Source: Acidobacteriota bacterium
Lineage (GTDB): Bacteria; Acidobacteriota; Polarisedimenticolia; Polarisedimenticolales; DASRJG01
DNA length: 64,000 bases
Assembly: GCA_032124015.1 (NCBI GenBank)
Contig: JAQBEH010000020.1
Span: forward strand, 8,965 to 72,964
Reading direction: 5' to 3'
In this document: one piece after another, positions 1-58,314 of the stretch
Numbering within the stretch: the first letter of the stretch is position 1
How the letters are laid out: each line of letters opens with the position of its first letter
The notes under the pieces: model-generated
What the model was told of the DNA's origin: nothing
Database searches by the model: none
Seen by the model: only the letters and a program-made list of their open reading frames with translations
Made by a program: the position numbers and the translations under genes

Positions 1-664
1 CGGGACGACTCCCGACGAAATCGTGGTCGACGAAGGAGGAATCCGCTACACGGCCGATCCCTGGCGGGGCCAGAAGACGGGCGCCTTTCTCGATCAGCGA
101 GAAAACCGCCTGGCCTGCCGCGCCTACGCTCGCGGGCGCGTCCTCGATGCGTTTTCGTACCATGCGTCGTTCGCGCTGCACGCGGCGTTCCAGGCTTCGG
201 AGGTCGTGGTCGTCGACGCCTCCTCGGACGCATTGACCCGCGGACGCGCGAACGCGGAGTTGAACGGCGCGACGAACCTGACGTTCGTCGAGGCGAACGC
301 GTTCGAGGACCTGCGCGAGCGCGACCGGCGGGGGGAACGATTCGATCTCGTCATGCTCGATCCTCCGGCGTTCGCGAAGAGTCGCGGCGACGTAGTGGCC
401 GCCCGGCGCGGGTACAAAGAGATCAACCTGCGAGCGTTCCGGCTGCTCGCTCCCGGCGGGGTCCTCGTCACGTCGTCCTGCTCGTACAACCTCGACGAAC
501 CGTCGTTCGAAGGCCTCGTGCGCGAGGCCGCGGCCGACGCGGGCCGGGACGTGGTGGCGCTCAAACGGAGAGGACAGGCCGCCGACCATCCCGTGCGGCT
601 GGCGTTTCCCGAGGGCCGCTATCTGAAGTGCTTCGTGCTGCGGGACGCGTCAGGGGCGCCGTGA
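1..664 (+). CDS. Class I SAM-dependent rRNA methyltransferase, RlmI/YwbD-like (C-terminal part; 5-prime end lies outside window)
   Basis: Translation contains QKTGAFLDQRENR, FDLVMLDPPAFAKSR, AARRGYKEINLRAFRLLAPGGVLVTSSCS, typical of the RlmI/RlmK PUA-SAM methyltransferase family. The reading frame is open to the window edge. Confidence 0.8.
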   Translation, partial: GTTPDEIVVDEGGIRYTADPWRGQKTGAFLDQRENRLACRAYARGRVLDAFSYHASFALHAAFQASEVVVVDASSDALTRGRANAELNGATNLTFVEANAFEDLRERDRRGERFDLVMLDPPAFAKSRGDVVAARRGYKEINLRAFRLLAPGGVLVTSSCSYNLDEPSFEGLVREAAADAGRDVVALKRRGQAADHPVRLAFPEGRYLKCFVLRDASGAP

Positions 665-3600
665 GGGGCGGCAGCGTGCTGGCCGCGGCGTTCGCCTGTG
701 CCTTGGCGACGGGCGGAACGCACGCCCAAACGCCACCCGACGCGCGATCTACGACCTGGCTGCAGCGCCGCCTCGAGACGGGCTTGGCGGAGGCGCTCGG
801 CGGAACGGTGCGGATCGGGCGGATCGACGTCGACTGGACCACGCTGTCGGCCACGGTCGGCGACGTGGCGATTGCGATCCCCGCCGGCGGAGCGCCGCCG
901 CTCACCGCCACGATCGGAGAGGGGAGAATCAAGCTCGCCTGGTCCGGGCTGAGCGGCATCGCGGGCGGGCAGGTTCACATCACCGAGCTCGTCGCGCGCA
1001 ACGCGACGTTTTCGCTCAGCCGGGAGTGGATCGACGCGTTCAAGCCGAAAGTCAGGAAGGAGGGCGGGCCGGTCGCGGTCCAGATCGACCGGCTCGTGGT
1101 CGAGGACGCCACCGCGGAGTATCTCGATGGGCACCATCACGTGCGGGTGCAGACCCACTCTTTCAATTTCCGCGGCGACTGGTCGACCTCGCGCCAGCGA
1201 CTCATCGGTGAGTTGCGCACCGAAGCCACCCTCGAGGCGCCGATCTTCAACCGCCCGTGGCCGGCTTCGGTTCGGTCGGGGTTGAGGCTCGGCGGCGGGC
1301 GACTCGAGATTTTTTCGGCGACCGCCGAGGGAGCAGGAGCCACCGCGGAGCTCACGGGAAACGTCGTGTGGGGGGTGGGCGTGTCCTTCACGGCGCAGGG
1401 CCGTTTGGACGCTGACCTCGCTGCTTTGAGCCCTTTTCTGGAGGGCCATGCCGGGCTTTCGGGCCGGGCCGAGGGACCCGTCCAGATCGTGTACACCGGC
1501 GGCGTGCCGATCCGGGTCGCGATGCAGGCGGCGACGACGGGATTTCGCGTCGGGCCGATCGCCACTGAGACCGCTCGCTGCGACCTCACGATCCGCCCGG
1601 GACACTTGGACGTCGAAAATATCGACGCGCGGGCCTACAAGGGGACCTTCGCGGGCAACGTGGGTCTCGACTTCGGCACGCCGCTCGAACTCCGGACGGA
1701 CATCTCAGGGAAGGGCGCCGATCTCTCCCGGCTGATCGCCCTCGCCGGACCGGTACTTCCGCTTGCGAGCGTCGCCGACGTGACGTTCAAGATCGTGGGC
1801 GATCCCGGGAGACTCGTGACGTGGAACGGCGGAGGGACCTTCGACGCCGTGCCTGTTTCCGCGGGTACGAGCGCGCGCATTCCCGCGGGAGGACGCGGAC
1901 GCCTGACGTTCGATTCCGGCCGCGTGCGCGTGCAAGCGGACCGTTTATCGCTGGCGGAGACGTCGTTGCGTTTCGACCTCCTGTCGGAACTCTCCGCGGC
2001 GCCGGCCAAGACCCATCTCACGGTCGACGGGACGACGCGCGACGCCCGGGTGACGCAAGACGCCGCATTGTCGATCCTCGACGCGTTCGGGGTCGAGCGG
2101 AATCGGTTCGCCCTCCTGCCTCTTCATGGAGCCGGGACCCTGCGCGCTGCGTTGAGGACCGCCGGTCGGGCCGCGACGATCGACCTGGGACTCGAGCTCG
2201 CGGAGGGCTCCTACGCCGGCGAGCCGTTCGCTTCGGCGATCCTGGATCTCGGTGTCTCACCAATCGCCGTGGACATCCGGCGCGTCGAGTTGTCCGGCGG
2301 CGGGCAGTTCTTGGCGGGGAGCGCGCGCTTCGACGCCAAGAACGGGGCGCTCGATGCGATCGACCTCACGGCCCGAGGCGTGGACATGGCGAGGCTGCTT
2401 GCGAGCGCAGGGGTCGCCGGTTCCGTCGAAGGCCGTGTCGAGGGGACGCTTCGCGGATCGCGCGAAGGCGGCGTGTTCGCAGCCCTCGGGCACGTCGCGG
2501 CGCACAGGGTCATCGTCGGTCATGAGATTGTCGACACGGTGGAGGCGCCCGTTCGTATCGAAGGGGATCAAGTCATTCTCGACGGGCTCGTCGCGCGGAG
2601 TGACGGCTTCGATGCCAGCGGACGCGTGACCTACGCCGTCGCGAAGGGCGAAGTCGAGGTGGAGATCGACGCGGCGACCATAGACCTTGCGCGCAACCGC
2701 ACGGTTGCCGACGCGGGCCTGACCGCGCAAGGGACGATTCATGCGTTGGGTTCGATGACGATCACGAAAGACGGTCCCAACGGGCGATTTGGGCTCACGG
2801 CGAGCGACCTCCTCCTGGATACGGGCCGCAGCGGATTACGTGAGATCCAACTCGGGAACCTGACCGGCGAGGCGACGATCTTGCCGATCGGACTCGAGTT
2901 CGCCGTCGCTTCGCGGCCTTCCGCATGGACCTTCGAGGGGTTCTTGGGCTTTGCGCCCAAACTGCCGCTTTCGGCCGTGCTGTATTTCGAAAACCTGGTC
3001 GTGGGGGCCGGGGGTGTTTTCGGAGAAAGCATCGACCTGACGTTGAAGGGGCAGGTCCACGCGGAAGGCGATCTGACGGAACCCCGCGCGATGGCGATCA
3101 ACGGCGTCTTCGACGAGACTGACGTCCGGCTCGGGCTGCGGGTCGTTCGCTCCCTCGAGCCGTTTCCCCTGCGCCTCGACGGCGGGCGCTTCGTGCTCGG
3201 CCCATCGCGGTTTTCCGGTGACGCCGCGGAGGTCGAACTCGCCGCGAGCGGATCGGTCGAGGGAGGAGACGTCGCGGGGTACCTCCGGGGGACGCTCGAC
3301 CTGGCGGTCGCGTCGTCGCTGTGGTCCGAGATCCGCGGCGGCGGGACGCTCACCATCGACGCGACCCTCGCCGGTACGTTCGAGCGCCCCGACCTTGAAG
3401 GCCGCGTCGCCGTGCGTGACGGTCGCCTGCGTCTGATCGGCTATCCGCAGTCTTTGGAGTCGATCGATGCGGACGCGGTGCTCGCGGGGCAGACGCTCAC
3501 GCTTTCGTCGTTTCACGCCCTCCAGGGCGGGGGAGAGATCTCGGCGACGGGGAGCGTGGAGTTCGAAGGTGTCGTTCCCAAGTCCCTTCGGGCCGAGTTC

Positions 3601-6600
3601 ACGGGCGCAAACGTCAGCGCGAAATTTCCCGAGGGGTTCAAAGGGACCTACGAGGGCCGCATCGAGGTCGAGGGAACGCCAAAGCGCGCGAAGATCTCAG
3701 GACGGGTCGACGTCGTGCGGGGTTTGTACTCCAAGGACTTCGACGTCGGTCTTTTCGCTGGGGCGCAACGCGAGTTCGACGCCGCGGCCGAGTCGCCGTT
3801 TCCTCGCAATCTCTTTCTCGACGTCGACGTCGTGGCGCCGGGTAACGTCTGGCTTCGCAACGACGTGGCCGCCGTCGAGGCGGAGGGGCAGATTCATCTC
3901 GGAGGCGAGCTGGCGCGCCCGGAGGTGACCGGACATTTCAACCTGGTGCCCGGCGGCGTCGTCACCTATCGGGACGTGAAGTATCGCATCGACTACGGAA
4001 CGGTGAATTTGACCGATCCGAAGCGCATCAACCCGTACCTCGAATTTCGCGGCCGCACTCGCGTTGCGGAGTACGACATCACGCTGCGCATCGCGGGTAC
4101 GCTCGACAAATTCGATTACGAGCTGGCCTCCACGCCGCCGCTCGACTCGCAGGACATCATCTCGCTTCTCGTCACAGGAAAGACGCTCGGCACGCTGGGC
4201 GATTCGGCCACCGCCGCGGCGCTTCCGACGGACATGGCCGCCTACTACTTCGCCGGCCTGCTGAGTTCGACGTTCGGAAAACAGATTGAGAGCTCGCTCG
4301 GGATCGATCAACTGGCGATCACTCCGCAGTTGCTGAAGGGGGAGTCCGATCCGACCGCGCGTGTCACGGTCGGCAAACACGTGAGCGACTCCGTGAAGGT
4401 CTCGTTCTCCCAGGATATCGGAACCGCTCAGAAGCAGACCTACTCGGTGTCTTGGGACGCTTCGCGGCGCATCCGCCTGGTCGTCGAGGACGACACGGAG
4501 TCCGGAATCGGCGGCGAATTGCAGTACGCCCAGCAGTTCGGCGGGACACCGATCGGCGGCGGGAAGGGCGGCGCGTTGGGAACGGTCGCATCCGTCGAGG
4601 TGATGACGGCCGACGGGGCGCCGCTTTCGGATCTCGTCAAACGAGCGAAAATCAAGGTCGGCGAACCTTTCGACCGCGGCCGGATGCTCCAGGGGGGCGA
4701 TCGCATTCGCGCCGCACTCCTGAAGGCAGGCTTCATCCAGGCCACCGTCCGCGCCGAGGCGGTGGTCGACGAAGGCCCGCCGCTTACGCGGCGGATCGTC
4801 TACCGCGTTGTGCCGGGACCGCCGGTCACGGTCGAGTTGGTCATGAGCGACGGCAAGGGGAAGCGAAAGGCTCGGAAATCGCTCAAGGCCTTCTGGCGCG
4901 AGACGATGTACACGCCGGATTTCTGGGAAGAAGCGGTCGATGCCCTGCTCGCCGACTATCGAGATCGCGGCTACTACGCCGCCGATGTCACGTGGCAGAC
5001 GGCGGACAGCCCGTCCGGGCGAACGGTGCGCATTCTCGTGGATCGCGGAAAACCGGTGCGCCTGCGTTCGGTGCGCTTCGAGGGAGGCACGTCGATCCCG
5101 CGGGAGCGCATCGACAAGCAGATGACCTGCCTGAAGAGCCAGGGGCTGCGCAAGCCTCGCCTCGAACCGTCGGTGCTGGCGGATGACCTCGCCTCGGTCA
5201 GGGCTCTTTACCGCGAGGAGGGGTTCACACGCGTGCGCATCGGACTGCCGCGGATCACGCTGTCCGCGACGGGCGAGAGCGCCGAGGTCGATGTCGCCAT
5301 CGACGAAGGACCGCGATTCACGGTCGGCACGGTCGGCTATTCGGGAGGGGACGCCCTGTCGGAAGAGCAGCTGCGCGCATCGACGTCGATCGAGCCCGGA
5401 ACGACGTTTTCGCCGCGCCGGCTCGCCGAGGTCGAACAGACGCTGAGGGAGCGATTCGACGCGCTCGGCTATCCCGACACGAGCGTCGAGTCCCGCGTCG
5501 AGCTCGTGGGGGATCGCGCGAACATCCTCTTCGAGATCGCTTCAGGCAGCCGCAAGGAGGTTGGCGAGATCGCGATCGAAGGGAACCGCGTCACCAAGGA
5601 CAAGACGATCGCAAAAGCGCTGACCTTCGGGGTCGGCCAGGTCGTCTCGAAACAGGCGCTCCTCGAGAGCCAGCAACGACTCTATCGAACCGGGCTCTTT
5701 TCCAGCGTCAAACTCTCGTGCGTTCCCGAAGGAGGCGCTGACGCGAGCGCCCAAGTCGTGACCGTGAAGGTCACGGAGGCGCCGCCATTCGCGCTTGGTC
5801 TCGGCGTGGGATACGACTCGACCGACGGCCCGGGGGCGAGCTTCCTTCTCGGGTACTCGAACCTCGGCGGACGCAACGTGGCGATCGCGCTGCAGGGCCG
5901 ATTCAACCGCAATGAGACTCGGGGGCTTCTCACGATTCGGAGAAGGCGCGTGTTCGGAAACACGATCGACTCACTCGGCTCGTTGCTCTATGAAAGGCAG
6001 GTCCAGGACGGGTTCTCCACGCTGCAAACTACGGCCTCGATCCGGTTGGAACAGCGGCCGAAGCCGCGGTGGATTCGCTACCTCCGGTATAGCATCCAGG
6101 AGGCCCGAGTTACCGACATCACCGATGCCGAGGCGGCGCTCGAGCAGATCTTCAAGGACAAATTGTCGAGCGTGCGGCTCGCCAATGCGAGCCTCGGAAT
6201 CGTCCGGGATACGCGCGACGACGCCTTTCTCCCGACCCGAGGAGGTTATGCCTCGATCGAGGGCACCGTCTTTGCGAGAGCGCTCGGATCCGAGGCGTCT
6301 TTGCTCCAGTCGTTCCTGCGCGGATCGTGGACTTACTCGGCCAAGCGAGGCGGGCGTTTCGCGACGTTCCTCCGCATCGGCGCCGAGCAACCCTTCGCCG
6401 ACACCGACATCGTCCCGCTCTCCGAGCGCTACTTCGCCGGCGGAATCAACACGCTACGCGGTTTCGCCACGGACTCGGTCGGTGGGTTGGTCATCCCTCG
6501 TGACCCAAACCAGCCCGATGGCCCGAGTGTCAACATCGGAGGCGAAGCGATCTTCTTGTTCAACCAGGAGTGGCACTTCCCCATCTGGAAGAGTTTGCGT

Positions 6601-6801
6601 GGGGAGCTGTTCCTCGACGTCGGAAACGTCTACCCGACGATCAGCGACTTCGACCTGACCGAGCTGCGCTACGACGCCGGCGTCGGCCTCCGCCTCGAGA
6701 CGCCGATCGGGCCGATCCGCCTCGAGTACGGGTGGAAGCTCGATCGGCAACCGGGCGAGAGCCCAGGCGAGTTGATCTTCGCGATCGGAACGCTGTTCTG
6801 A
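661..6801 (+). CDS. TamB/AsmA-like translocation-assembly protein fused in frame to POTRA repeats and an Omp85 (BamA/TamA-type) beta-barrel
   Basis: One uninterrupted ORF (track 628..6801). GTG 661 overlaps the upstream stop as GTGA; GTG 628 is an alternative start. N-terminal signal/anchor SVLAAAFACALATGGTHA. Long TamB-like body ends in a DUF490-like block (VGKHVSDSVKVSFSQDIG...GGELQYAQQF, ends about 4538). A Gly-rich linker follows, then about five POTRA-like repeats (about 4585-5780). The Omp85-type barrel ends ...LIFAIGTLF. Confidence 0.8.
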   Translation: MRGGSVLAAAFACALATGGTHAQTPPDARSTTWLQRRLETGLAEALGGTVRIGRIDVDWTTLSATVGDVAIAIPAGGAPPLTATIGEGRIKLAWSGLSGIAGGQVHITELVARNATFSLSREWIDAFKPKVRKEGGPVAVQIDRLVVEDATAEYLDGHHHVRVQTHSFNFRGDWSTSRQRLIGELRTEATLEAPIFNRPWPASVRSGLRLGGGRLEIFSATAEGAGATAELTGNVVWGVGVSFTAQGRLDADLAALSPFLEGHAGLSGRAEGPVQIVYTGGVPIRVAMQAATTGFRVGPIATETARCDLTIRPGHLDVENIDARAYKGTFAGNVGLDFGTPLELRTDISGKGADLSRLIALAGPVLPLASVADVTFKIVGDPGRLVTWNGGGTFDAVPVSAGTSARIPAGGRGRLTFDSGRVRVQADRLSLAETSLRFDLLSELSAAPAKTHLTVDGTTRDARVTQDAALSILDAFGVERNRFALLPLHGAGTLRAALRTAGRAATIDLGLELAEGSYAGEPFASAILDLGVSPIAVDIRRVELSGGGQFLAGSARFDAKNGALDAIDLTARGVDMARLLASAGVAGSVEGRVEGTLRGSREGGVFAALGHVAAHRVIVGHEIVDTVEAPVRIEGDQVILDGLVARSDGFDASGRVTYAVAKGEVEVEIDAATIDLARNRTVADAGLTAQGTIHALGSMTITKDGPNGRFGLTASDLLLDTGRSGLREIQLGNLTGEATILPIGLEFAVASRPSAWTFEGFLGFAPKLPLSAVLYFENLVVGAGGVFGESIDLTLKGQVHAEGDLTEPRAMAINGVFDETDVRLGLRVVRSLEPFPLRLDGGRFVLGPSRFSGDAAEVELAASGSVEGGDVAGYLRGTLDLAVASSLWSEIRGGGTLTIDATLAGTFERPDLEGRVAVRDGRLRLIGYPQSLESIDADAVLAGQTLTLSSFHALQGGGEISATGSVEFEGVVPKSLRAEFTGANVSAKFPEGFKGTYEGRIEVEGTPKRAKISGRVDVVRGLYSKDFDVGLFAGAQREFDAAAESPFPRNLFLDVDVVAPGNVWLRNDVAAVEAEGQIHLGGELARPEVTGHFNLVPGGVVTYRDVKYRIDYGTVNLTDPKRINPYLEFRGRTRVAEYDITLRIAGTLDKFDYELASTPPLDSQDIISLLVTGKTLGTLGDSATAAALPTDMAAYYFAGLLSSTFGKQIESSLGIDQLAITPQLLKGESDPTARVTVGKHVSDSVKVSFSQDIGTAQKQTYSVSWDASRRIRLVVEDDTESGIGGELQYAQQFGGTPIGGGKGGALGTVASVEVMTADGAPLSDLVKRAKIKVGEPFDRGRMLQGGDRIRAALLKAGFIQATVRAEAVVDEGPPLTRRIVYRVVPGPPVTVELVMSDGKGKRKARKSLKAFWRETMYTPDFWEEAVDALLADYRDRGYYAADVTWQTADSPSGRTVRILVDRGKPVRLRSVRFEGGTSIPRERIDKQMTCLKSQGLRKPRLEPSVLADDLASVRALYREEGFTRVRIGLPRITLSATGESAEVDVAIDEGPRFTVGTVGYSGGDALSEEQLRASTSIEPGTTFSPRRLAEVEQTLRERFDALGYPDTSVESRVELVGDRANILFEIASGSRKEVGEIAIEGNRVTKDKTIAKALTFGVGQVVSKQALLESQQRLYRTGLFSSVKLSCVPEGGADASAQVVTVKVTEAPPFALGLGVGYDSTDGPGASFLLGYSNLGGRNVAIALQGRFNRNETRGLLTIRRRRVFGNTIDSLGSLLYERQVQDGFSTLQTTASIRLEQRPKPRWIRYLRYSIQEARVTDITDAEAALEQIFKDKLSSVRLANASLGIVRDTRDDAFLPTRGGYASIEGTVFARALGSEASLLQSFLRGSWTYSAKRGGRFATFLRIGAEQPFADTDIVPLSERYFAGGINTLRGFATDSVGGLVIPRDPNQPDGPSVNIGGEAIFLFNQEWHFPIWKSLRGELFLDVGNVYPTISDFDLTELRYDAGVGLRLETPIGPIRLEYGWKLDRQPGESPGELIFAIGTLF

Positions 6802-6893: not shown

Positions 6894-7253
6894 TCAGGCC
6901 AAGGAGAAGCGGAGGTTGCCGCGCTGGGGGCCGAGGCAAACCCGGAGTTTCTGCTTCGCTTCGCGTTCGAGTTGTCGGACTCGCTCCCGGCTGAGGTTCA
7001 TTCTCTTTCCGATCTCCTCGAGCGTTTGCTCCTGACCGCCGAGAAGGCCGAAACGGTTCCTAATGATGTGGAGCTCGCGCTCGTCCAGGCGTCCGAGAGC
7101 CCGCTGGACGATCGCTCCGACCTCGCGGTTGTAGATCTTTTCTTCTTGATTTTCCGACTGGGTGTCGGCGAGGAGGGTCGAAAACCGGCATTCTTCGTCC
7201 GAATCCACGTAGTCATCTATCGAGAGCTCTTTTTGTAGCAGCGGGAAGATCAT
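6894..7253 (-). CDS. Stand-alone sigma-70 region 3.2-4.2 protein (119 aa; truncated sigma-like)
   Basis: ATG at 7253 is preceded by GGAGAA. MIFPLLQKELSIDDYVDSDEE...RELHIIRNRFGLLGGQEQTLEEIGKRMNLSRERVRQLEREAKQKL aligns with the C-terminal third of the full sigma at 57428..58285. No region 2 is encoded upstream in any frame. The track ORF extension to 7481 has no sigma similarity. Confidence 0.6.
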   Translation of the reverse strand: MIFPLLQKELSIDDYVDSDEECRFSTLLADTQSENQEEKIYNREVGAIVQRALGRLDERELHIIRNRFGLLGGQEQTLEEIGKRMNLSRERVRQLEREAKQKLRVCLGPQRGNLRFSLA

Positions 7254-7542: not shown

Positions 7543-9291
7543 GTGGGTCGGATCCGCGTCCTGGATGATCACCTCGTCAATCGCATCGCCGCCGGCGAAG
7601 TCGTCGAACGGCCCGCCGCGGTCGTCAAGGAACTCGTCGAGAACAGCTTGGACGCCGGGGCCGGTTCGATCGAAGTCCGCGTCGAAGACGGAGGCCGGAG
7701 GAGGATCATCGTTGCCGACGACGGAGAGGGGATGGAGCGCGACGACGCGCTTCTCGCCCTGGAACGGCACGCCACGAGCAAACTCCGCAGCTTCGAGGAC
7801 CTCGCGGCCATCGCCACCTTGGGATTTCGCGGGGAAGCGCTCCCGAGCATCGCCGCGGTTTCCCGTTTTCTCATTCGCACCGCGGCACGCGATGGGTTCG
7901 GCACCGAGATCGAAGTGCGGGCCGGAAGGATCAGTGGCGTACGCGAAGTGGAACGGGGGCGAGGCACGACGACGGAAGTGGGCGGGATCTTTTTCAACGT
8001 GCCCGCGCGGCGAAAGTTCCTGCGAGCGGCTCCGACGGAGCTCGCTCACATCGTCCGTACGGTCGCCCACTACGCGCTGGCGCACCCGTCGGTGCGGTTC
8101 GTCCTCGAACACGAGGGGAGACGTCTGATCGAAGCAGCGAAGGCGGCCGACCGGGCCGAGCGCATCGCCCAGGTCCACGGGCGCGAGCTCGCGGCCAAGC
8201 TGGTGCCGTTCGACGCGGAAAGCTCCGGGATTCGAGCGAGCGGATTCGCGGGCCGGCCGGTCGACGCGCTGGCCCGCCGCGACGTCCAGCACGTCTTCGT
8301 GAACGGCCGCCTCGTGCAGGACCGGGTTTTGGCGCACGCGATCGCCGCGGCGTACGGCAACACGCTGGCCCGTGGCCTCTACCCCGCGATGCTCCTTTTC
8401 GTCGACCTCGACCCCTCCCGGGTCGACGTCAACGTGCATCCCCAAAAAACCGAGGTGCGTTTCGACCGATCCTCCGACGTGCATGACGCGGTGCGAGCCG
8501 CCGTCGCCGCAGCACTTTCGCACGAAACCGCAGTGCCGCACCTTCAAGACCTGAGACCCGGGACGGGCGCGCCCGCACCTTCCGCTTCTTTCGCAGCGGC
8601 GCTGATCCGTAGTGAGGCCGTGGCCGAGTTCCCGGCGCGAGCCTACGGGCCGCAGGGTGGTGCGTCGGCACCGAGCCTGCTCGACGAGGGGAGCGCCGCG
8701 GTCGATCCCGGCCGCCGGGCGGTGCCGTTGGCGCAGTACAAAGATTCCTACATCGTCGCGCAGGATCGGGAGGGGCTATTGATCGTCGATCAGCACGTCG
8801 CTCACGAACGCGTCCTGTTCGAGCGCTACCTAGGAGAAACGGAGCGCGGCGACGTTCACGTGCAGCGCCTCCTTTTCCCGAAAACGATCGAGTTGTCGGC
8901 CGATGAGGCGGTGGTTTTCGCAGCTGAGGCGGGGGAGTTCGCGCGCCTCGGTTTTCTGCTGGAACCGTTCGGCGGGAACGCAGTGAAACTGGACGGCGTT
9001 CCGGCATTCGCCAAGGACGTGGCTCCCGATCGCCTGCTGCGCGAGCTCCTCGGGGAAGCCGCGAGAACGCGTAGCGCGGCGACCGGTGCCGAGGAGTTGC
9101 GCCGGCGGCTGGTGACGAGCGCTTCCTGTCAAGCGGCGATCAAGGTCAACTACCCCCTGGCCCGCGAGGGGATGCAGCGCCTTTTGGATGACCTCTTTCA
9201 GACCGAAAATCCGACGACCTGTCCTCACGGGCGGCCGATCATCTTCAGGCTCACACTGGACGAGATCGAAAGAGCCTTCAGGCGACGCTGA
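7543..9291 (+). CDS. mutL: DNA mismatch repair protein MutL
   Basis: IRVLDDHLVNRIAAGEVVERPAAVVKELVENSLDAGA (GHKL ATPase N-terminus). C-terminal dimerisation/endonuclease region includes ...ACQAAIKVN...CPHGRP. GTG 7543 follows GGAGG; the track ATG 7441 would add a non-homologous extension. Confidence 0.9.
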   Translation: MGRIRVLDDHLVNRIAAGEVVERPAAVVKELVENSLDAGAGSIEVRVEDGGRRRIIVADDGEGMERDDALLALERHATSKLRSFEDLAAIATLGFRGEALPSIAAVSRFLIRTAARDGFGTEIEVRAGRISGVREVERGRGTTTEVGGIFFNVPARRKFLRAAPTELAHIVRTVAHYALAHPSVRFVLEHEGRRLIEAAKAADRAERIAQVHGRELAAKLVPFDAESSGIRASGFAGRPVDALARRDVQHVFVNGRLVQDRVLAHAIAAAYGNTLARGLYPAMLLFVDLDPSRVDVNVHPQKTEVRFDRSSDVHDAVRAAVAAALSHETAVPHLQDLRPGTGAPAPSASFAAALIRSEAVAEFPARAYGPQGGASAPSLLDEGSAAVDPGRRAVPLAQYKDSYIVAQDREGLLIVDQHVAHERVLFERYLGETERGDVHVQRLLFPKTIELSADEAVVFAAEAGEFARLGFLLEPFGGNAVKLDGVPAFAKDVAPDRLLRELLGEAARTRSAATGAEELRRRLVTSASCQAAIKVNYPLAREGMQRLLDDLFQTENPTTCPHGRPIIFRLTLDEIERAFRRR

Positions 9292-9303
9292 TCGCCCCCC
9301 TTG

Positions 9304-9332
9304 TTGACGGTGCGGGAAATACCTCGTATATA
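9304..9332 (+). promoter_or_regulatory. Sigma-70-type promoter candidate for the transglycosylase gene (near-leaderless)
   Basis: TTGACG (9304-9309), 17-nt spacer, TATATA (9327-9332). The ATG at 9341 lies 8 nt after the -10 box with no Shine-Dalgarno. Confidence 0.4.
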
Positions 9333-9340
9333 ACGAAGCC

Positions 9341-10042
9341 ATGCGACCCCTTATCCCGGTGGTGTTGGCCGCCCTACTCGGCGGCACCTTGGTGAACGCC
9401 ACGGATCTCGTCGTCTTCGAGGACGGACGAGGCCTCAGGGTCAGCGGATTTCAACTCGCCGACGGACTCGCGCGGCTCACTCTGGAAGATGGCGGTGAAC
9501 TCGGGGTACCGATGGGTTCGATCATCGCGATCGAGCGTGCCATCGACGCGGAGGATCCCACGCCTGAAGAGGACCCGAACCGAGCGGTCGAGGCCGCCGC
9601 GATCGTCAACGATCTTCGCGCAAACGAGAAGTGGCGCCGGGCCGCCGGACGTTACGCCGACGCGATCGCCGCGGCGGCGGACCGCAATGCGCTCGATCGG
9701 GCGTTGCTGGCCGCGGTCGCCAAGGTCGAGTCCAATTTCAAGCCCTACGCCGTCTCACCGCGTGGCGCCGCGGGCATCCTCCAGTTGATGCCGGCAACGG
9801 CGAAGCGGTTCGGCGTGAGAAACGTGTTCGACGCGGAGCAGAACATCGACGGTGGGGCGCGCTATCTGCGGTGGCTCTTGGATCACTTCAACGGACGCGT
9901 CGATCTCGCCCTCGCGGGGTACAACGCCGGCGAGGGAGCGGTGGATCGCCATCACGGCGTTCCTCCCTTCGCCGAAACCGAATGGTACGTGATCAAAGTC
10001 CTCGACCACGTTGGGCAGACGAAGCCGTCGGCTCAGCGCTGA
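9341..10042 (+). CDS. Lytic transglycosylase (SLT domain) with signal peptide
   Basis: AVAKVESNFKPYAVSPRGAAGILQLMPATAKRFGV ... ALAGYNAGEGAV. The catalytic Glu-Ser motif context is typical of the SLT family. Confidence 0.85.
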   Translation: MRPLIPVVLAALLGGTLVNATDLVVFEDGRGLRVSGFQLADGLARLTLEDGGELGVPMGSIIAIERAIDAEDPTPEEDPNRAVEAAAIVNDLRANEKWRRAAGRYADAIAAAADRNALDRALLAAVAKVESNFKPYAVSPRGAAGILQLMPATAKRFGVRNVFDAEQNIDGGARYLRWLLDHFNGRVDLALAGYNAGEGAVDRHHGVPPFAETEWYVIKVLDHVGQTKPSAQR

Positions 10043-11235
10043 CGCCTCCCGAAGACGCTTCGAAGAAAAGGCAGGATCGGATCGGCGGTGATTGCCGGAG
10101 CCGGGCCGTACCCGTCCAAACGCCAGCCGGATTCTCCTTCCGGATGAAGTGACGCGGTCATGGCCGCGATCGGCGCTTCTTTCGGCTCGTCCGTCGAACG
10201 CGCCAGGCGAGCCCAGCTCTGCCTCACGAACGCGGACGACGAAACAGCGCTCCAACTCGCGTCGAACGCGCCGGGAGCAGAGGGGTCGCCGCTGAGAAGC
10301 GAACCCTCGCGCCGGGCGTCGATCGCGGATTCGAGCCGCGCGCGCGAGGACGTCACGAGCAGGATCGGACCATCGATGGCAAGAGCGATCCCGGACCCAC
10401 CGGCGCTCGGAACGAACGATCCCGTGGAGACACCACGATAGCGAACGACCTCGGCATGCTCGGTCAAGGCGCCCAGGCCAAAGAGCATGTCGAGGAGACC
10501 GGAAAGCCGGTCGGAGCGACGGAGCTCCAAGGCGAGGATCGCTTCGGCCTGGGTGTCGTCCCCGCCGTCGTAGAGTGCAAAAACCGCGGGTCCGGCCAGG
10601 TCCTCGGCGATCTCGGCGCGCACGGGGTGCCCAAGAAGCCTCTCCGCGAAATTCGCGCGATCACGCCAGGACGCCAAGACGGCGCCACCGAGTGTCGGAT
10701 CCGCCAGACGCCTGGGCATCAGTCGAATCCTGACCAGGCAGGAGGGTGTGCCGGGAACGGCCTGAAGGGCCAACGTCGCAGCAGGAATCACGTGAGTTCT
10801 GTCCAAAATGTCGAGCACCGGGGCGGGCCCGTCGAAGCTCCAGGATTCCCTCAAGCCGACCGTCGAGGTGGTCCCGGCAGCGGTTCTGGTGTCGATCGTT
10901 CCCCGCGCGGTCGCCGGAAACAACTCGGACCCGCCGGGAAAGCCCATGGCCGCCAGACGCGGTTCGAGGACTGCGCGTAGGTCGACCTCAACGTGAAGGA
11001 TCCCCTCCGCGTCGACCTGGCCCGAGCGAAGTGCCTTGGAGTTCAGCAGGGCCCGATAGAGAGGGATGCCTTGAAGGAGGGTGAGGGCCGCCTCGTCGGT
11101 CGGCCGGTCCGGGTTCGGCGGGCCGGTTTCGGGGCCGTTCGAGCCCCGGCCCGCGCAGCGCCAGAGGGTGAAAGAGGCCACGAGGAGGGCGCTCGCGAGG
11201 AACGCCACCGCCACGACGAGGGCACTCCGTTTCAA
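10033..11235 (-). CDS. Hypothetical membrane-anchored protein
   Basis: TTG 11235 is preceded by GGAAAGGAAAG. N-terminal TM ALVVAVAFLASALLVASFTLW. No family recognised. The track start (11355) would overlap the divergent gene. Confidence 0.5.
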   Translation of the reverse strand: MKRSALVVAVAFLASALLVASFTLWRCAGRGSNGPETGPPNPDRPTDEAALTLLQGIPLYRALLNSKALRSGQVDAEGILHVEVDLRAVLEPRLAAMGFPGGSELFPATARGTIDTRTAAGTTSTVGLRESWSFDGPAPVLDILDRTHVIPAATLALQAVPGTPSCLVRIRLMPRRLADPTLGGAVLASWRDRANFAERLLGHPVRAEIAEDLAGPAVFALYDGGDDTQAEAILALELRRSDRLSGLLDMLFGLGALTEHAEVVRYRGVSTGSFVPSAGGSGIALAIDGPILLVTSSRARLESAIDARREGSLLSGDPSAPGAFDASWSAVSSSAFVRQSWARLARSTDEPKEAPIAAMTASLHPEGESGWRLDGYGPAPAITADPILPFLRSVFGRRQR

Positions 11236-11344
11236 TCCACTTTCCTTTCCGGCACCGATCCCTATATTGTCCGCGATGGGCAGTATAGGTTCACGGGGTG
11301 GGCCGGGGGTGGACCTCGGGGCCCAAACGACGGTGACGACCGGG

Positions 11345-12835
11345 ATGCAGGCCAATTTCAGTAGTCAGACGCTTGCCGAGATCTTCCGCGATCTCTACGT
11401 CGGGGAGCGCTCGGGCGTCCTCGAACTGAGCCGCGGGAACATCGAGAAGCGGATCTATTTCGATCGCGGCATGATTCTGTTCGCCGAATCCGGCGCCGAC
11501 GATGAAAACCTCGGCCGCCGGCTGGTGAGCGAAGGGAAGATCTCACCCGGAGCCCTCTCGGAGGCTCGACGGAACATCAGCGAGCCCAAAGATCTCGCCC
11601 AGGCGTTGGTCAACCGCGGCCTGATCGGGAAAGAGACTCTCTCCCACACCGTGCGTTACATCGTGGAGCAAGTCATTCAGTCCGTTTTCCAATGGGAAGG
11701 CGGCACGGCGCGATTCAGCGAGGGCTGGCTCCTCCAAGAGATCTTTGAAAGCGACATCCTGCTCACGTTCGAGGTGATCCTCAAGGGGATCGGCGCGATG
11801 GTCGGCTTCGAGCCGATTCAAGCGGCGATGAAGGGGCTCGACAGCCGCCTCAAGCTGCGGCGGCCGTCACCCGTCCCTCTCGAACGAGTCGCGCTTTCGC
11901 CGGCCCACGGCTACATCCTGTCGCGCATCGACGGTAAGAGTCGCCTTCAAGACATCCTCGCGCTCCTTCCTCCGGCGGAAGAAGGTTTGGCCTGCCGGTT
12001 CCTGTATGGGCTTCTCGTGCTGGGTGTGGTCTGTTACGACCCGCCGGTTGGGGAAGCGGCGTTTCGGATCACCACCATCCTGCGGGACCACGCGGACACG
12101 GTCGCCCTCGAAGGCTTGCAAGAGCGCATGGTCCTCGAGACCTACGCCGCGATGAGGAACAAAAACCCGCACGAGGTTCTGGGGCTCCCTTCGGGCGCGT
12201 CGCGCGACACGATAGAAAGCGCCTACGAAGAGGCCAAAGACCGGTTCAGCCGGGACCGGATCCTGCCCCGCATCCGGGAACGCCTCCGCGCGGAGCTAGC
12301 CGTCATCGAGAGCCGGTTCGTCGAGGCGTACCTGACGCTCGTGCAGGCACGGGCCAACGACCACGGGCCAAGGCCCGAAGACGGAGCTGACGCAAAGGAA
12401 CCGCAGGGCATGGATGATTTCCTCGTCCGGATCGAAATGGACAAGACCAAGACGAAGGTCGCAATCGAGGAAAATGCCAAGCTCGCGGAGTCCTACTTCT
12501 CCCAGGCCAAGAAGTTCATGCGAGAAGGGGACCCCTACAACGCCATCCAGTACGGGAAGCTGGCGATCAGCTACAGCCCCGACGAAGCCCGATTCTATTT
12601 TCTCCTCGCCGAATGCCAGGTCAAGAATCCGGACGCTCGCTGGCAACGCCTGGCTGAGCAGAACTACCTCGAGGCGGCCCGGCAGGACCAGTGGAACGCC
12701 GAGTACCGGATCACGCTGGGCCGTTTCTACAAACGGCGCGGACTGAAGCTCAGGGCTAAAAAGCAGTTTGAGGAGGCTCTCACGCTCGCTCCCACCCACG
12801 AAGGCGCGCTCAAGGAGCTCCAGTCCGTCTCGTGA
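11345..12835 (+). CDS. DUF4388 (PATAN-like) domain protein with J-like domain lacking HPD and C-terminal TPR repeats
   Basis: N-terminus LAEIFRDLYVGERSGVLELSRGNIEKRIYFDRGMILFAESG (DUF4388 signature). NPHEVLGLPSGASRDTIESAYEEAKDRFSRD is J-domain helix I-II-like but no HPD tripeptide follows. The C-terminus has TPR-like AIQYGKLAISYSPDEARFYFLLAECQ. ATG 11345 was chosen; ATG 11275 is an alternative. Confidence 0.65.
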   Translation: MQANFSSQTLAEIFRDLYVGERSGVLELSRGNIEKRIYFDRGMILFAESGADDENLGRRLVSEGKISPGALSEARRNISEPKDLAQALVNRGLIGKETLSHTVRYIVEQVIQSVFQWEGGTARFSEGWLLQEIFESDILLTFEVILKGIGAMVGFEPIQAAMKGLDSRLKLRRPSPVPLERVALSPAHGYILSRIDGKSRLQDILALLPPAEEGLACRFLYGLLVLGVVCYDPPVGEAAFRITTILRDHADTVALEGLQERMVLETYAAMRNKNPHEVLGLPSGASRDTIESAYEEAKDRFSRDRILPRIRERLRAELAVIESRFVEAYLTLVQARANDHGPRPEDGADAKEPQGMDDFLVRIEMDKTKTKVAIEENAKLAESYFSQAKKFMREGDPYNAIQYGKLAISYSPDEARFYFLLAECQVKNPDARWQRLAEQNYLEAARQDQWNAEYRITLGRFYKRRGLKLRAKKQFEEALTLAPTHEGALKELQSVS

Positions 12836-12912: not shown

Positions 12913-13413
12913 ATGTTCATTGATATCAACACAATAGGGACCGAGGGCCTCTCGTTTCAGCGTTCCGTCCGCCTTCACGGGCTGGAAGGGCCGAGCCGAG
13001 AGAGCATCCCCGACCTCGAGGCGCAACTGGAAGGTACGGTCAGCCCCGTGCCCGGCGGTGCTGAGTTGAAAGCCCGTATCGGAGCGACGGTTCCTCTGAT
13101 GTGCAGCCGTTGTCTCGAGACCTTCTCGTGGGACATCCGGATGGCCTTTGCTTGGAAGGTCTTGAAAACATCGACGGACGACGATGCCTCGGTCCTCGTT
13201 GCCCCCGAAGGCAAGATCGGTCTCGAGGATCTCGCGACGGAACAGCTGTACCTCAATCTTCCCCTGAAGCCTATTTGTTCGCCGTCATGCCTCGGGCTGT
13301 GCCCCACGTGCGGGACGAACAAGAATCTGAGCGCGTGCGAATGCGTGCCCGATGACGTCGATCCGCGGTTGGCCCCGCTTCTCCCGTTCAGACGAAAAAC
13401 GAAAGACTCCTAA
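12913..13413 (+). CDS. yceD: YceD/DUF177 family protein (large-subunit rRNA accumulation protein)
   Basis: CSRCLETF ... CSPSCLGLCPTCGTNKNLSACEC Cys motifs, and the conserved position immediately upstream of rpmF. Confidence 0.8.
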   Translation: MFIDINTIGTEGLSFQRSVRLHGLEGPSRESIPDLEAQLEGTVSPVPGGAELKARIGATVPLMCSRCLETFSWDIRMAFAWKVLKTSTDDDASVLVAPEGKIGLEDLATEQLYLNLPLKPICSPSCLGLCPTCGTNKNLSACECVPDDVDPRLAPLLPFRRKTKDS

Positions 13414-13466
13414 GAGCGACAGAGCGAATCCCGGACTCCCGGGGCGTCTGCGTGAGGTCATAGACG

Positions 13467-13649
13467 ATGCCGAATCCAAAACGACGCCACTCCAGGGCCC
13501 GCCGCGATAAGCGGCGTGCGCACGACGCGCTTGCGCAACCCGGAACATCGGTGTGCACGAACTGCCAGGAGCGCAAGCTGCCGCATCGCGTGTGCCCGCA
13601 TTGCGGCCACTACAAAGGTCGCGAGGTCGTCGAGCCCCCGTCCGCCTAG
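13467..13649 (+). CDS. rpmF: 50S ribosomal protein L32
   Basis: MPNPKRRHSRARRDKRRAHDAL...CTNCQERKLPHRVCPHCGHYKGREV. Confidence 0.95.
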   Translation: MPNPKRRHSRARRDKRRAHDALAQPGTSVCTNCQERKLPHRVCPHCGHYKGREVVEPPSA

Positions 13650-13695
13650 GGGTCTGCGCTGGGCCTTTAGCGTCTGGGCCCGCGGAGGGGGAGCG

Positions 13696-14682
13696 ATGGG
13701 GACTCGTAGCGCGATCATCACGGGAACGGGTACGAGCGTGCCCTCCCGCATCATGACCAATAGCGACCTGGAAAAGATCGTCGATACCAGCGACGAGTGG
13801 ATCCAGAGCCGAACGGGTATCAGCGAGAGGCGGATCGCGATGCCGCACGAGGCGGTCTCGGAGTTCGCCGAGGCGGCCGCCCGCAACGCGCTCGAAATGG
13901 CCGGCGTGGCCCCGAACAACGTCGACCTCATCATCTGCGCTACGGTCACGCCGGACGCACCGATTCCGGCAACGGCGTGCCTGCTCCAGCATCGGCTCGG
14001 ATGCCACCACGCGGCGGCGTTCGACATGCAGGCGGGGTGCTCGGGTTTCATCTACGCGCAATCGGTCGCAAAGCAATTCATCGTCAGCGGTCGGTGCCGC
14101 AACGTGTTGGTCATCGGCGCGGAACTGCTCAGCAAGTTCCTCGACTGGACCGACCGCACGACCTGCGTGATCTTCGCCGACGGCGCCGGCGCCGTCGTGA
14201 TGAGCGAAGGGAGCCTCCCCCAGGGCATCCTCGCCTCCGCCCTGCACTCGGACGGGAGCATGAGCGACTTCATCAGCATGGAGGGGGGCGGATCGATGCA
14301 CCCCGCCAGCGAAGAGACTGTGGCGAAGGGGATGCACTTCATCCGCATGCGCGGGAACGAAACCTTCAAGATCGCCGTGCGCTCGCTCGAGGACGTCTCG
14401 CGCGAGGTCCTTTTGGCGGCAGGGCTCACCCCCAACGACGTTTCGTGGTTCATTCCCCATCAAGCCAACCAGCGGATCATCAGCGCCGTCGGGGAGCGCC
14501 TGGGAATCCCGCCGGAACGTTGCTACGTCAACATCGACCGCTTCGGAAACACTTCGGCGGCTTCGATTCCAATCGCGCTCGACGAAGCGGTGCGAGCCGG
14601 CAAGGTCCAGCGGGGCGACATCATTCTCATGGCGGCCTTCGGAGCCGGCCTCACCTGGGCGGCCAGCGCGGTGCGCTGGTGA
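13696..14682 (+). CDS. fabH: 3-oxoacyl-ACP synthase III (KAS III)
   Basis: MGTRSAIITGTGTSVPSRIMTNSDLEKIVDTSDEWIQSRTGISERR; active-site context AGCSGF; HQANQRI; GNTSAASIP. Confidence 0.95.
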   Translation: MGTRSAIITGTGTSVPSRIMTNSDLEKIVDTSDEWIQSRTGISERRIAMPHEAVSEFAEAAARNALEMAGVAPNNVDLIICATVTPDAPIPATACLLQHRLGCHHAAAFDMQAGCSGFIYAQSVAKQFIVSGRCRNVLVIGAELLSKFLDWTDRTTCVIFADGAGAVVMSEGSLPQGILASALHSDGSMSDFISMEGGGSMHPASEETVAKGMHFIRMRGNETFKIAVRSLEDVSREVLLAAGLTPNDVSWFIPHQANQRIISAVGERLGIPPERCYVNIDRFGNTSAASIPIALDEAVRAGKVQRGDIILMAAFGAGLTWAASAVRW

Positions 14683-15617
14683 GGCCTTTCGCGGCGCTGT
14701 TTCCGGGTCAAGGATCGCAGTACCCCGGGATGGGGAAGGACCTTGCCGCGACCGAGCCCTCCGCGGCGGCGGTCTTCCACGCCGCGGACGAGGCGTTGGG
14801 TTTCTCTCTGTCCGGTTTGTGCTTCGCGGGTCCCGAAACGGAGCTCGTCCGCACCGAGATCACCCAGCCCGCAATCCTCACCGTCGCGATCGCCGCCTTC
14901 CGGGCGTTTGAGGCGCGTGGCGGAACGTCGCCGGTCGCGGCCGCGGGTCACAGCCTCGGCGAGTACGCGGCCCACGTGGCCGCCAAGACCCTGACGTTCG
15001 ACGACGCCGTCCGGATCGTCCGGGAACGCGGACGGTTCATGCAAGAGGCCGTCCCGGAGGGGAACGGCGCGATGGCGGCGATCCTCGGCCTCGATCGCCC
15101 CGCCGTCGAACGGTTATGCGCGCAGGCCGAAGACGGCGAGATCGTGAGCTGCGCCAACGCGAATGGTCCCGGTCAGATCGTGATCGCCGGCCACGCCGCC
15201 GCCGTGAAACGGGCATGCGAGGCCGCGCTCGCCGGGGGTGCCTCTCGAGCGATTCCGTTGCCGGTGAGCGCACCGTTCCATTGCGCCCTGATGGAACCCG
15301 CGGCCCGGCGCCTGTCGGTGGTCCTCGAATCCGTGACGTTTTGCGATCCGTCGATTCCGGTGTACACCAACGTCGATGCCGCGATCGTGTCGACCGGTGC
15401 GGCCTCCCGCGACGCTCTCGCGCGGCAGGTGGTGTCGTCGGTCCGGTGGGAGGAGGAGATCCTGAGGATGGCCCAAGACGGGATCGATACGTTCGTCGAG
15501 TTCGGCCCGGGACGGGTCCTGTCCGGCCTCGTGCGACGGATCCGAAAGGATCTCAGCGTTCTTTCCGTGTCGGACGCCGCGGGGCTCGCCGCGGCGCTCC
15601 AGGCGCTCGAGAGTTGA
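14679..15617 (+). CDS. fabD: Malonyl-CoA:ACP transacylase
   Basis: The GTG start overlaps the fabH stop (GTGA). FPGQGSQYPGMGKDL; GHSLGEYAAHVAA (active-site Ser). Confidence 0.9.
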   Translation: MRPFAALFPGQGSQYPGMGKDLAATEPSAAAVFHAADEALGFSLSGLCFAGPETELVRTEITQPAILTVAIAAFRAFEARGGTSPVAAAGHSLGEYAAHVAAKTLTFDDAVRIVRERGRFMQEAVPEGNGAMAAILGLDRPAVERLCAQAEDGEIVSCANANGPGQIVIAGHAAAVKRACEAALAGGASRAIPLPVSAPFHCALMEPAARRLSVVLESVTFCDPSIPVYTNVDAAIVSTGAASRDALARQVVSSVRWEEEILRMAQDGIDTFVEFGPGRVLSGLVRRIRKDLSVLSVSDAAGLAAALQALES

Positions 15618-15619
15618 AC

Positions 15620-16366
15620 ATGGACGGTATGTTCGAGGGAAAGGTGGCGCTCGTCACGGGAGCGTCGCGAGGGATCGGACGTGCGATCGCCATGGCGCTT
15701 GCGGCGCGCGGGGCGACGGCGATCGTCACGGCGCGTTCTGCTGAGGCCGCGGGTCGAACCGCCGACGACATCGTGGCGAAAGGAGGGCGCGCGCGGCCGC
15801 TCGTGCTCGACATCGCGGACGATCGATCGGTCGACGCCGCAATGGCGGACCTCCTGAAGGAACATGCTACAATCCCGCTCCTCGTGAACAATGCTGGAAT
15901 CACCCGGGACAACCTCCTGATGCGGATGAAGAAGGAGGATTGGAACGAGGTGATCGACACGAATCTCTCAGGGGTCTATCGCATCTGTCGTTCGCTGGTC
16001 CCCTCCATGGTGAAAGCGCGGTACGGACGAATCGTGAACATCACCTCGGTGGTTGCTCGCATAGGAAACCCAGGCCAGGCGAACTACGCCGCGGCGAAAG
16101 CCGGAACGGAAGGGTTTACCCGCTCGCTGGCCCGGGAGTTGGCCTCCCGGAACATCACGGTGAACTGCGTGGCCCCGGGATTCGTCGAAACCGACATGAC
16201 GGCGGCGCTGACCGAGGCTCAACGCGAGGCGCTTCTGGCGCAAGTCCCCCTGAAACGTCTCGGCCGGCCGGAGGACGTCGCCGCGGGGGTGACGTACCTT
16301 CTCAGCGAACACGCCTCTTACGTGACCGGAATTACCTTGGATATCAACGGCGGAATGTACATGTGA
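15620..16366 (+). CDS. fabG: 3-oxoacyl-ACP reductase
   Basis: [17 protein letters not shown]; NNAGITRD; YAAAKAG (SDR YxxxK); [16 protein letters not shown]. Confidence 0.9.
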
Positions 16367-16433
16367 GTGGGCTCCGCGATCGGACCGCAGCAGCGGACCC
16401 AATCGCGATTTATTGCGACGGAGGATCAGAGCG

Positions 16434-16673
16434 ATGGCTTCCATCGAAGACAAGGTCAAGAACATCATCGTTGAGCAGTTGGGTGTCGACGAAAAAGAGG
16501 TCAAGCCCGAGGCCCACTTCGTGGACGATCTGGGGGCTGATTCCCTCGATGTCGTCGAGCTCGTCATGGCTCTCGAAGAAGAATTCAAACTCGAGATCAG
16601 CGACGAAGACGCCGAAAAGCTCACGACCGTGAAGCAGGCCATCGACTACATCGGGGCCCACGCCAAGGCCTGA
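16434..16673 (+). CDS. acpP: Acyl carrier protein
   Basis: [23 protein letters not shown]...[21 protein letters not shown] (DSL phosphopantetheine site). Confidence 0.95.
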
Positions 16674-16675
16674 GC

Positions 16676-53605: not shown

Positions 53606-53606
53606 G

Positions 53607-58285: not shown

Positions 58286-58314
58286 GCGACGCTTTTAGGA
58301 GCGAGGCCAGCGTC

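Follow-up and report, generated by a model that had tools for sequence, protein, structure and literature searches.

The fusion gene and its reading frame

The gene described here belongs to an uncultured Acidobacteriota bacterium (GenBank assembly GCA_032124015.1) and lies near the start of a 64,000-nucleotide stretch of contig JAQBEH010000020.1 (positions 8,965 to 72,964 of the forward strand), the whole of which is referred to as the window. The gene occupies positions 661..6801 of the plus strand as one open frame of 2046 codons plus a stop, and it joins a TamB-type protein to POTRA domains and an Omp85 barrel. The components and their partnership are well known, and public databases already contain such proteins, listed with generic names. 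The novelty lies in the covalent joining, in how widely it occurs among Acidobacteriota and in one clade's apparent loss of the inner-membrane anchor. Coordinates are those of the whole 64-kb window, and residues are numbered from the GTG codon at 661 unless otherwise stated.

An original prediction, made from the sequence alone, had described an open reading frame of about 2050 codons without a stop. This was borne out, with zero internal stops in the translation, and the sequence details listed with the prediction were all found where it had placed them. The frame is open from 628 to the stop codon at 6799-6801, and the first GTG (628) gives the 2057 codons of the open reading frame list. 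A further alternative start is the GTG at 676, which is used in a 100% identical protein of 2041 residues from NCBI assemblies. GTG 661 is the likely start, as it shares bases, in the form GTGA, with the TGA (662-664) that closes the methyltransferase gene upstream, and close homologues begin at MRGG... at the equivalent position; the product would then have 2046 residues. Further upstream the same frame (frame 1) is stop-free back to base 1 of the window, with no start codon before 628, and its part at 1-660 is the methyltransferase gene (frame 2, 2-664) read in another frame. The GC fractions at the three codon positions are 0.69/0.52/0.79, which is as expected for a real gene in surrounding DNA of 66% GC. 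Scanning for promoters and terminators along the gene gave no signal above chance.

The TamB half

The original prediction had named TamB, POTRA and Omp85 portions, and a Pfam scan detected all three in the order TamB/DUF490, POTRA, Omp85. The TamB C-terminal domain (PF04357, DUF490) lies at 3523..4539 (residues 955-1293) with E = 3.2e-43, and the match covers profile positions 8-381 of 381 (residues 966-1304 when numbered from 628). The protein therefore has the DUF490 domain of TamB/AsmA-like bridge proteins. The predicted end of the TamB-like body at about 4538, in ...GGELQYAQQF, was likewise confirmed, the last F codon being 4537-4539. The score for the proteobacterial TamB equivalog NF047952 was 38.6 bits, far below the cut-off of 825.

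Structure was predicted with AlphaFold2 in two parts from a 45-sequence alignment. Residues 1-868 were modelled with a predicted local distance difference test score (pLDDT) of 85.9, and residues 849-2046 with a pLDDT of 78.7 and a predicted TM-score (pTM) of 0.60. After the N-terminal segment, a short helix (residues 33-46) is followed by a continuous beta-groove ("beta-taco") rod from residue 49 to about 1158, the two together at 727..4134. This region is almost entirely beta strands in the models and amounts to some 1150 residues of beta-groove. The top PDB match of the rod by Foldseek was the bridge-like lipid transfer protein LPD-3 (9cap_A, E = 6.6e-7); TM-scores were low, in keeping with long flexible rods. 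The long continuous groove of TamB/AsmA-like proteins is thus seen both in the model and in the LPD-3 match, and there are weak DUF748/YhdP Pfam matches at residues 34-170.

The profile of the fusion family aligns to residues 1030-1251 of 1259 of E. coli TamB (PDB 9xdc_B, 23sp_B), reaching to within 8 residues of the E. coli C-terminus. A single-sequence phmmer search of the DUF490 region against PDB sequences gave no match, whereas the family profile did. Within this region the model has three helices at 4147..4299 (residues 1163-1213; H315-324, H328-331 and H340-365 in model numbering), modelled with partly low confidence. They plausibly correspond to the three helices of E. coli TamB DUF490 (PMC13119328), by analogy, since the hidden Markov model alignment shows the same region aligning rather than a helix-by-helix match. 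Six terminal beta strands follow at 4309..4539 (residues 1217-1293) and end in the beta-signal-like GGELQYAQQF; in the hybrid barrel of E. coli, TamB likewise has six strands embedded in the membrane (PMC13119328). E. coli TamB ends in ...VSGVDQALDLLYQFEF (DLLYQFEF), and at the same position the fusion family has ...ESGIGGELQYAQQF, with the aromatic end motif kept. Judged from this alignment, the fusion point is the extreme C-terminus of TamB, because the ...ESGIGGELQYAQQF of the family sits where E. coli TamB ends. At the last position of the TamB part, 40 of 45 homologues have a hydrophobic residue, which in 31 homologues is F. The GGELQYAQQF segment is conserved but internal, with GG and the tether after it.

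Junction, POTRA domains and barrel

The junction reads ...IGGELQYAQQF, then GGTPIGGGKGGALG, then TVASVEV. The original prediction of a Gly-rich linker between the TamB end and the POTRA domains was upheld at 4540..4581, where GGTPIGGGKGGALG forms a tether of 14 residues (1294-1307) with pLDDT below 50 at model residues 451-457. Its first Gly is kept in 44/45 homologues and its second in 36/45. The rest varies in sequence and in length (about 12-35 residues), and the length changes are by whole codons. Across the homologues compared, the tether was found to contain neither a hydrophobic or signal-peptide-like segment nor a conserved protease-type motif beyond GG.

After the tether come five POTRA domains at 4582..5778 (residues 1308-1384, 1389-1461, 1467-1548, 1554-1627 and 1633-1706), each modelled as a beta-alpha-alpha-beta-beta unit; Pfam POTRA matched in four stretches (E = 4.7e-35). 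The Omp85 barrel follows at 5788..6798 (residues 1710-2046), with a Pfam match of E = 1.9e-42 over residues 1745-2057 (numbered from 628). Sixteen barrel strands are present in the model, ending in ...FAIGTLF, and an LRGF loop motif can be read from the translation. The five POTRA repeats and the barrel ending in IGTLF thus stood as predicted, and the model across the junction gave the six strands, the low-confidence tether and then POTRA1. Foldseek matched the last ~800 residues to E. coli BamA along its full length (E = 4e-44), and structural alignments to E. coli and Neisseria BamA chains show 17-19% identity. The BamA model TIGR03303 was passed marginally (301.9 bits against a cut-off of 297.15). 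The TamA model NF047950 gave 126.4 bits against a cut-off of 625, and there are five POTRA domains, not three.

Conservation of the fusion in Acidobacteriota

Among the listed homologues of the full-length protein, all or part of the fusion architecture was found in 120/120 entries (database clusters). A search of related genomes had been proposed along with the original prediction, and the same fusion was found in at least 115 clusters of at least 1900 residues. Identity among fused homologues falls to about 24%. They come from Polarisedimenticolia, Vicinamibacteria, Luteitalea, Aminicenantes, "Acidobacteria bacterium" entries and other Acidobacteriota, and recur in NCBI, ENA, JGI and Logan assemblies. 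The 90% cluster of the window protein has nine full-length members, each on at most 7 contigs. A junction profile made of the last TamB strands, the tether and POTRA1 was also searched against 1.84 billion cluster representatives; of the best 150 (clusters at 50% identity), about 129 gave matches that run through the junction without a break. The gene order surrounding the fusion is kept in two other assemblies.

These results bear on the reading that a tamB gene and an Omp85 gene were wrongly joined by an assembly error or frameshift. Two split-looking entries would favor it, P0041 (1376 residues, TamB only) and P0129 (783 residues, POTRA and Omp85). Neither was accepted as a genuine split gene, as P0041 is truncated inside POTRA1 and P0129 lies on an error-rich contig in which PPDK and MutL are also fragmented. 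A single open reading frame recurs in the clusters counted above, from four assembly sources and down to 24% identity. Moreover, the tether changes length by whole codons, every homologue reads through, and the linker lacks a signal peptide for an independent Omp85. The probability of an artefact is negligible. The fusion is confirmed as real and conserved, and it covalently links a complete TamB-type protein to POTRA domains and an Omp85 barrel.

Two further fused proteins, P0042 (2068 residues) and P0043 (2037 residues), share no more than 32-36% identity with the window protein. Both P0043 and P0031, the latter 57% identical to the window protein, carry the label Polarisedimenticolaceae. 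P0042 and P0043 may be deep orthologues or a second fused paralogue in that family.

Unfused relatives and the origin of the fusion

Searching with the POTRA-barrel half returned, besides fragments of fused proteins, unfused Omp85s of 912-1040 residues with 23-29% identity. Four of these were examined (P0132, P0134, P0137 and P0138; loci L006/L007/L008, L009, L012 and L013), and each was found directly downstream of a separate tamB gene. The junctions between the two genes are overlaps of 26 nt, 4 nt or 1 nt, or a gap of 11 nt. At the two loci read in detail, L006 and L009, TamB (1312 and 1377 residues) carries a long anchor at its N-terminus, and the Omp85 is made with a signal peptide of its own. 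All four unfused Omp85s have about seven POTRA domains, and their barrels begin at residue 614-673 or later. At L009 the next gene downstream of the operon is of the LolA family (8790-9473); downstream of the other unfused operons are unannotated genes of 206-601 residues.

A neighbor-joining tree of POTRA5 and the barrel, which is crude and has no support values, places the fused barrels as one clade beside the TamB-adjacent Omp85s, with two canonical BamAs and TamA further out. Since the nearest unfused Omp85 relatives examined each abut or overlap an upstream tamB, the fusion is best traced to a tamB-omp85 operon. It most likely arose from such an adjacent pair when the stop codon of tamB and the signal peptide of the Omp85 were lost. 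Because the two genes overlap or abut, a single mutation could fuse them, and the simplest history suggested by these sequences would be a single ancient loss of both the stop and the signal peptide. The original prediction had read the protein as a Rosetta-stone fusion, and this reading is strengthened by the unfused relatives, which are encoded as adjacent tamB then omp85. The gene order tamA then tamB, which it had given as the usual one, is not ancestral here.

The N-terminus

The protein begins with the signal-peptide-like segment MRGGSVLAAAFACALATGGTHA at 661..726 (residues 1-22), with predicted cleavage before QTPPD. Hydropathy and motif analysis was used to compare it with its relatives. 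Members of the clade of the window protein (at least 51% identity) have one or two basic residues and an Ala/Leu-rich hydrophobic core of 11-14 residues, followed in 33 of 36 members by a conserved AxA-type site before Q (e.g., GGTHA|QTPP). The median of the maximum 19-residue hydropathy is 1.49 in this clade. Distant fused clades have hydrophobic stretches of about 20 residues and a median of 2.58, with 65 of 74 scoring at least 2.0; by the same measure, unfused TamB relatives score 2.6-2.7 and E. coli TamB 2.9. AlphaFold2 confidence was low for the helix formed by the N-terminal ~22 residues.

By this analysis the window clade appears to lack the uncleaved inner-membrane signal-anchor helix of TamB/AsmA-like proteins, and its N-terminus is probably a cleavable signal peptide. 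The protein would then be anchored by the barrel alone, since it has a short core and an AxA-type site in place of an anchor of about 20 residues. A reading of the N-terminal Cys as that of a lipoprotein was rejected because the residue is not conserved. The original prediction of a start that is "signal/anchor" therefore held for the signal but probably not for the anchor, and for the window protein its claim that a single chain crosses both membranes is left without support. For the distant fused clades, whose N-termini resemble anchors, one polypeptide across both membranes is plausible.

Comparison with known TamB systems

One known counterpart is E. coli's translocation and assembly module (TAM), formed by TamA and TamB and seen by cryo-electron microscopy in 2026 (PDB 9xdc, 23sp; PMC13119328). 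In that complex, the final strand of TamB bears a beta-signal and is paired with TamA barrel strand 1; six strands of TamB lie within the membrane and form part of a hybrid barrel, and phospholipid is carried in the groove (PMC13119328). The fusion shares with it the beta-groove rod, the DUF490 end with three helices, six strands and an aromatic, beta-signal-like last strand, and an Omp85 partner with POTRA domains and a 16-strand barrel. In E. coli the TamB C-terminus adjoins the periplasmic side of the barrel, and it is predicted to do so in the fusion too. The fusion is one polypeptide running from TamB to Omp85 where E. coli has two, encoded tamA then tamB. It also has five POTRA domains rather than three, its Omp85 half scores 126 bits against the TamA cut-off of 625, and the N-terminus of its clade looks cleavable rather than like an inner-membrane anchor.

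Pairings of TamB with BamA-like proteins have also been described. In Borrelia, TamB pairs with BamA as separate proteins (PMC5582053). Acidobacteria and Aquificae have a second, TamB-linked copy of BamA, with seven POTRA domains in some Acidobacteria; the acidobacterial copy, given in the order BamA then TamB, was proposed as the origin of TamA (Heinz et al., 2015; PMC4494059). As in the fusion, TamB is matched in these cases with a BamA-like Omp85 of at least five POTRA domains and not with a three-POTRA TamA; the proteins are however separate, and no fusion is mentioned (PMC5582053, PMC4494059). The unfused tamB-omp85 operons described above share the gene order, their Omp85s are the closest unfused relatives in the tree, and their TamB length (1312-1377 residues) is similar to the 1293 residues of the TamB part of the fusion. 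They differ in encoding two proteins, in having about seven POTRA domains rather than five, and, at L006 and L009, in the TamB anchor and the Omp85 signal peptide. TAM-type coupling of TamB with an Omp85 partner is therefore found in both forms, covalent here and through adjacent genes in the unfused relatives. Finally, canonical BamA (TIGR03303) shares with the fusion the five POTRA domains, the 16-strand barrel, the RGF loop motif and the terminal aromatic residue, and differs in lacking the ~1300 extra N-terminal residues and in its gene neighborhood.

A proposed arrangement and its alternatives

From the E. coli complex, an arrangement for the fusion can be proposed. The 2046-residue product would be exported by Sec, and in the window clade its N-terminal signal would, on balance, be expected to be cleaved after THA22. 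The C-terminal 16-strand barrel would be inserted in the outer membrane, presumably by the ordinary beta-barrel assembly machinery (BAM), with the five POTRA domains placed in the periplasm. The predicted ~1150-residue rod could then reach back toward the inner membrane. The six terminal strands, ending in GGELQYAQQF, would be inserted next to barrel strand 1 and give a hybrid barrel like that of E. coli, and the 14-residue tether would return the chain to POTRA1. If standard barrel topology applies, the strand paired with barrel strand 1 should finish at the periplasmic face, and a tether from there to the periplasmic POTRA1 would need no membrane crossing. The order of TamB C-terminus then POTRA1, on which the original prediction had built its model, is indeed compatible with the known TamA-TamB topology (PMC13119328). 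The best TM-scores were obtained with open, substrate-engaged states of BamA (8bnz_A, 8qn4_A), a weak hint of pairing between strand and barrel. A hard-wired TAM, with the barrel in the outer membrane, the POTRA domains below it and the TamB rod at the barrel seam, is likely. Such a machine may move phospholipids from the inner to the outer membrane and/or help to assemble particular outer-membrane proteins, a TAM-like function suggested by analogy with E. coli (PMC13119328).

Several points weigh against this arrangement. The pairing of the six strands with the barrel of the same chain is drawn by analogy, and the function of all members of the fusion family is likewise predicted. The N-terminus of the window clade has no membrane-spanning anchor by which the rod could engage the inner membrane. 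Should the POTRA arm stretch out as it does in E. coli BamA, the tether, with a reach of no more than about 5 nm, may be short. In addition, the charged pairs formed by K283/R368 of E. coli TamA and D1252/D1200 of TamB could not be mapped convincingly onto the fusion.

The short tether is also what would favor docking in trans, in which the six strands of one chain enter the barrel of a neighboring chain to give dimers or longer chains, since 14 residues are few relative to a five-POTRA arm. Tether lengths of about 12-35 residues without obvious constraint speak against this, as does an AlphaFold2 single-chain model that is reasonably confident (pTM 0.60), and docking in trans is considered unlikely. 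Alternatively, the chain could be a precursor that is cut at the tether in the periplasm to give a two-subunit complex of TamB and Omp85 in strict 1:1 ratio. The beta-signal of BAM substrates usually ends in a free C-terminal aromatic residue, and cleavage would restore that usual form; moreover, the tether is an exposed, flexible and variable segment, opening with F-GG, which is almost invariant. Set against this are the lack of any conserved protease-type motif beyond GG or of a hydrophobic signal-like segment, and the retention of the fusion over very deep divergence when an operon already gives coupled expression. Cleavage at the tether is accordingly held to be quite unlikely, and the uncut chain docking in cis is the arrangement preferred here.

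Is the fusion the only Omp85 of the cell?

The number of POTRA domains had led the original prediction to ask whether this protein is the only Omp85 of the cell, which would make it the essential general insertase BamA joined permanently to TamB. The five POTRA domains, the marginal pass of TIGR03303 (301.9 against 297.15 bits) and the Foldseek alignment over full-length BamA are in favor of this. A tblastn search of the 64-kb window also found no second Omp85. A scan of the genome collection returned just two loci, and a homologue search with the Ramlibacter BamA P0139, a betaproteobacterial query, returned no BamA from Acidobacteriota. On the other side, the gene lies outside the canonical rseP-bamA-skp-lpxD context, in which P0139, one of the two canonical BamAs in the tree, is found. 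In three assemblies its neighbors are instead a methyltransferase, a sigma-70 region-4 protein, mutL and an SLT transglycosylase. The barrel groups, in the crude tree, with TamB-adjacent paralogues, the canonical BamAs and TamA lying further out, and Acidobacteria are reported to have a canonical BamA besides the second, TamB-linked copy (Heinz et al., 2015; PMC4494059). This argues that the Omp85 half belongs with the TamB-partner paralogues rather than with canonical BamA, and the fusion is probably not the only Omp85 of the cell; that it should be the sole one is very unlikely. A sole Omp85 that would insert all barrels and also deliver lipids, in a window clade anchored only in the outer membrane after giving up its inner-membrane anchor, is very improbable as well.

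Other genes in the window

Convergent with the 3' end of the fusion gene is a gene for a 119-residue protein with sigma-70 region 4 only (6894-7253, minus strand), which is kept at the same place in two other assemblies (L003, L005). About 6 kb downstream of the fusion is a fatty-acid synthesis cluster of yceD, fabH, fabG, acpP and fabF (12913-17917, plus strand), and L003 has YceD, L32, FabH, FabD and FabG at the same distance. This places lipid synthesis close to a putative lipid transporter, and probably reflects conserved gene order only. Two DUF4388/PatA_N proteins, one of them with TPR repeats, are encoded at 11081-12835 and 53505-54881 (both plus strand), and L003 likewise has the first of them close to the fusion gene.

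Further genes concern the cell envelope. Three adjacent genes at 38670-41330 (plus strand), for an ABC ATPase, a MacB/FtsX-type permease and a LolA-like protein, resemble a set of the Lol type for sorting lipoproteins; they bear on outer-membrane biogenesis and are 32 kb away from the fusion. A 647-residue protein encoded at 59870-61813 (plus strand) has an LptA/LptD_N domain only at its C-terminus (residues 508-627) and is unusually long for LptA; the gene suggests that the organism makes and transports lipopolysaccharide. It is followed by rpoN (62618-64000, plus strand), which runs off the end of the window. Also present are a tyrosine recombinase of the phage-integrase family (47532-49061, plus strand), whose listed reading frame overlaps the end of murJ and whose real start is probably later, and an IstB-like ATPase (58255-59052, plus strand). 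These two may be housekeeping genes, resembling XerC/D and DnaC, or else what is left of mobile elements.

Significance

Full-text literature searches, whose coverage was incomplete so that the fusion may have been noticed earlier, found no natural TamB-Omp85, TamB-BamA or TamB-TamA fusion. It is likewise unmentioned in a survey of the Omp85 superfamily from 2014 and in the 2015 study of TAM evolution (PMC4494059). Annotation pipelines name these proteins "BamA" or "TamB domain-containing", which hides their architecture.

A natural fusion placed exactly at the C-terminal beta-signal of TamB fits the hybrid-barrel model of TamA and TamB and lends it independent support. It also suggests that a free TamB C-terminus is not required. 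As a naturally stoichiometric, single-chain TAM, the fusion is a practical target for structural work. Its biogenesis raises the question of how a chain of about 220 kDa with two beta-signals is assembled, and the N-terminus of the window clade raises that of whether such a bridge can work without an inner-membrane anchor. Concerning how the TAM evolved, the finding adds a tamB-then-omp85 fusion branch in Acidobacteriota, the phylum that has been proposed as the cradle of TamA.

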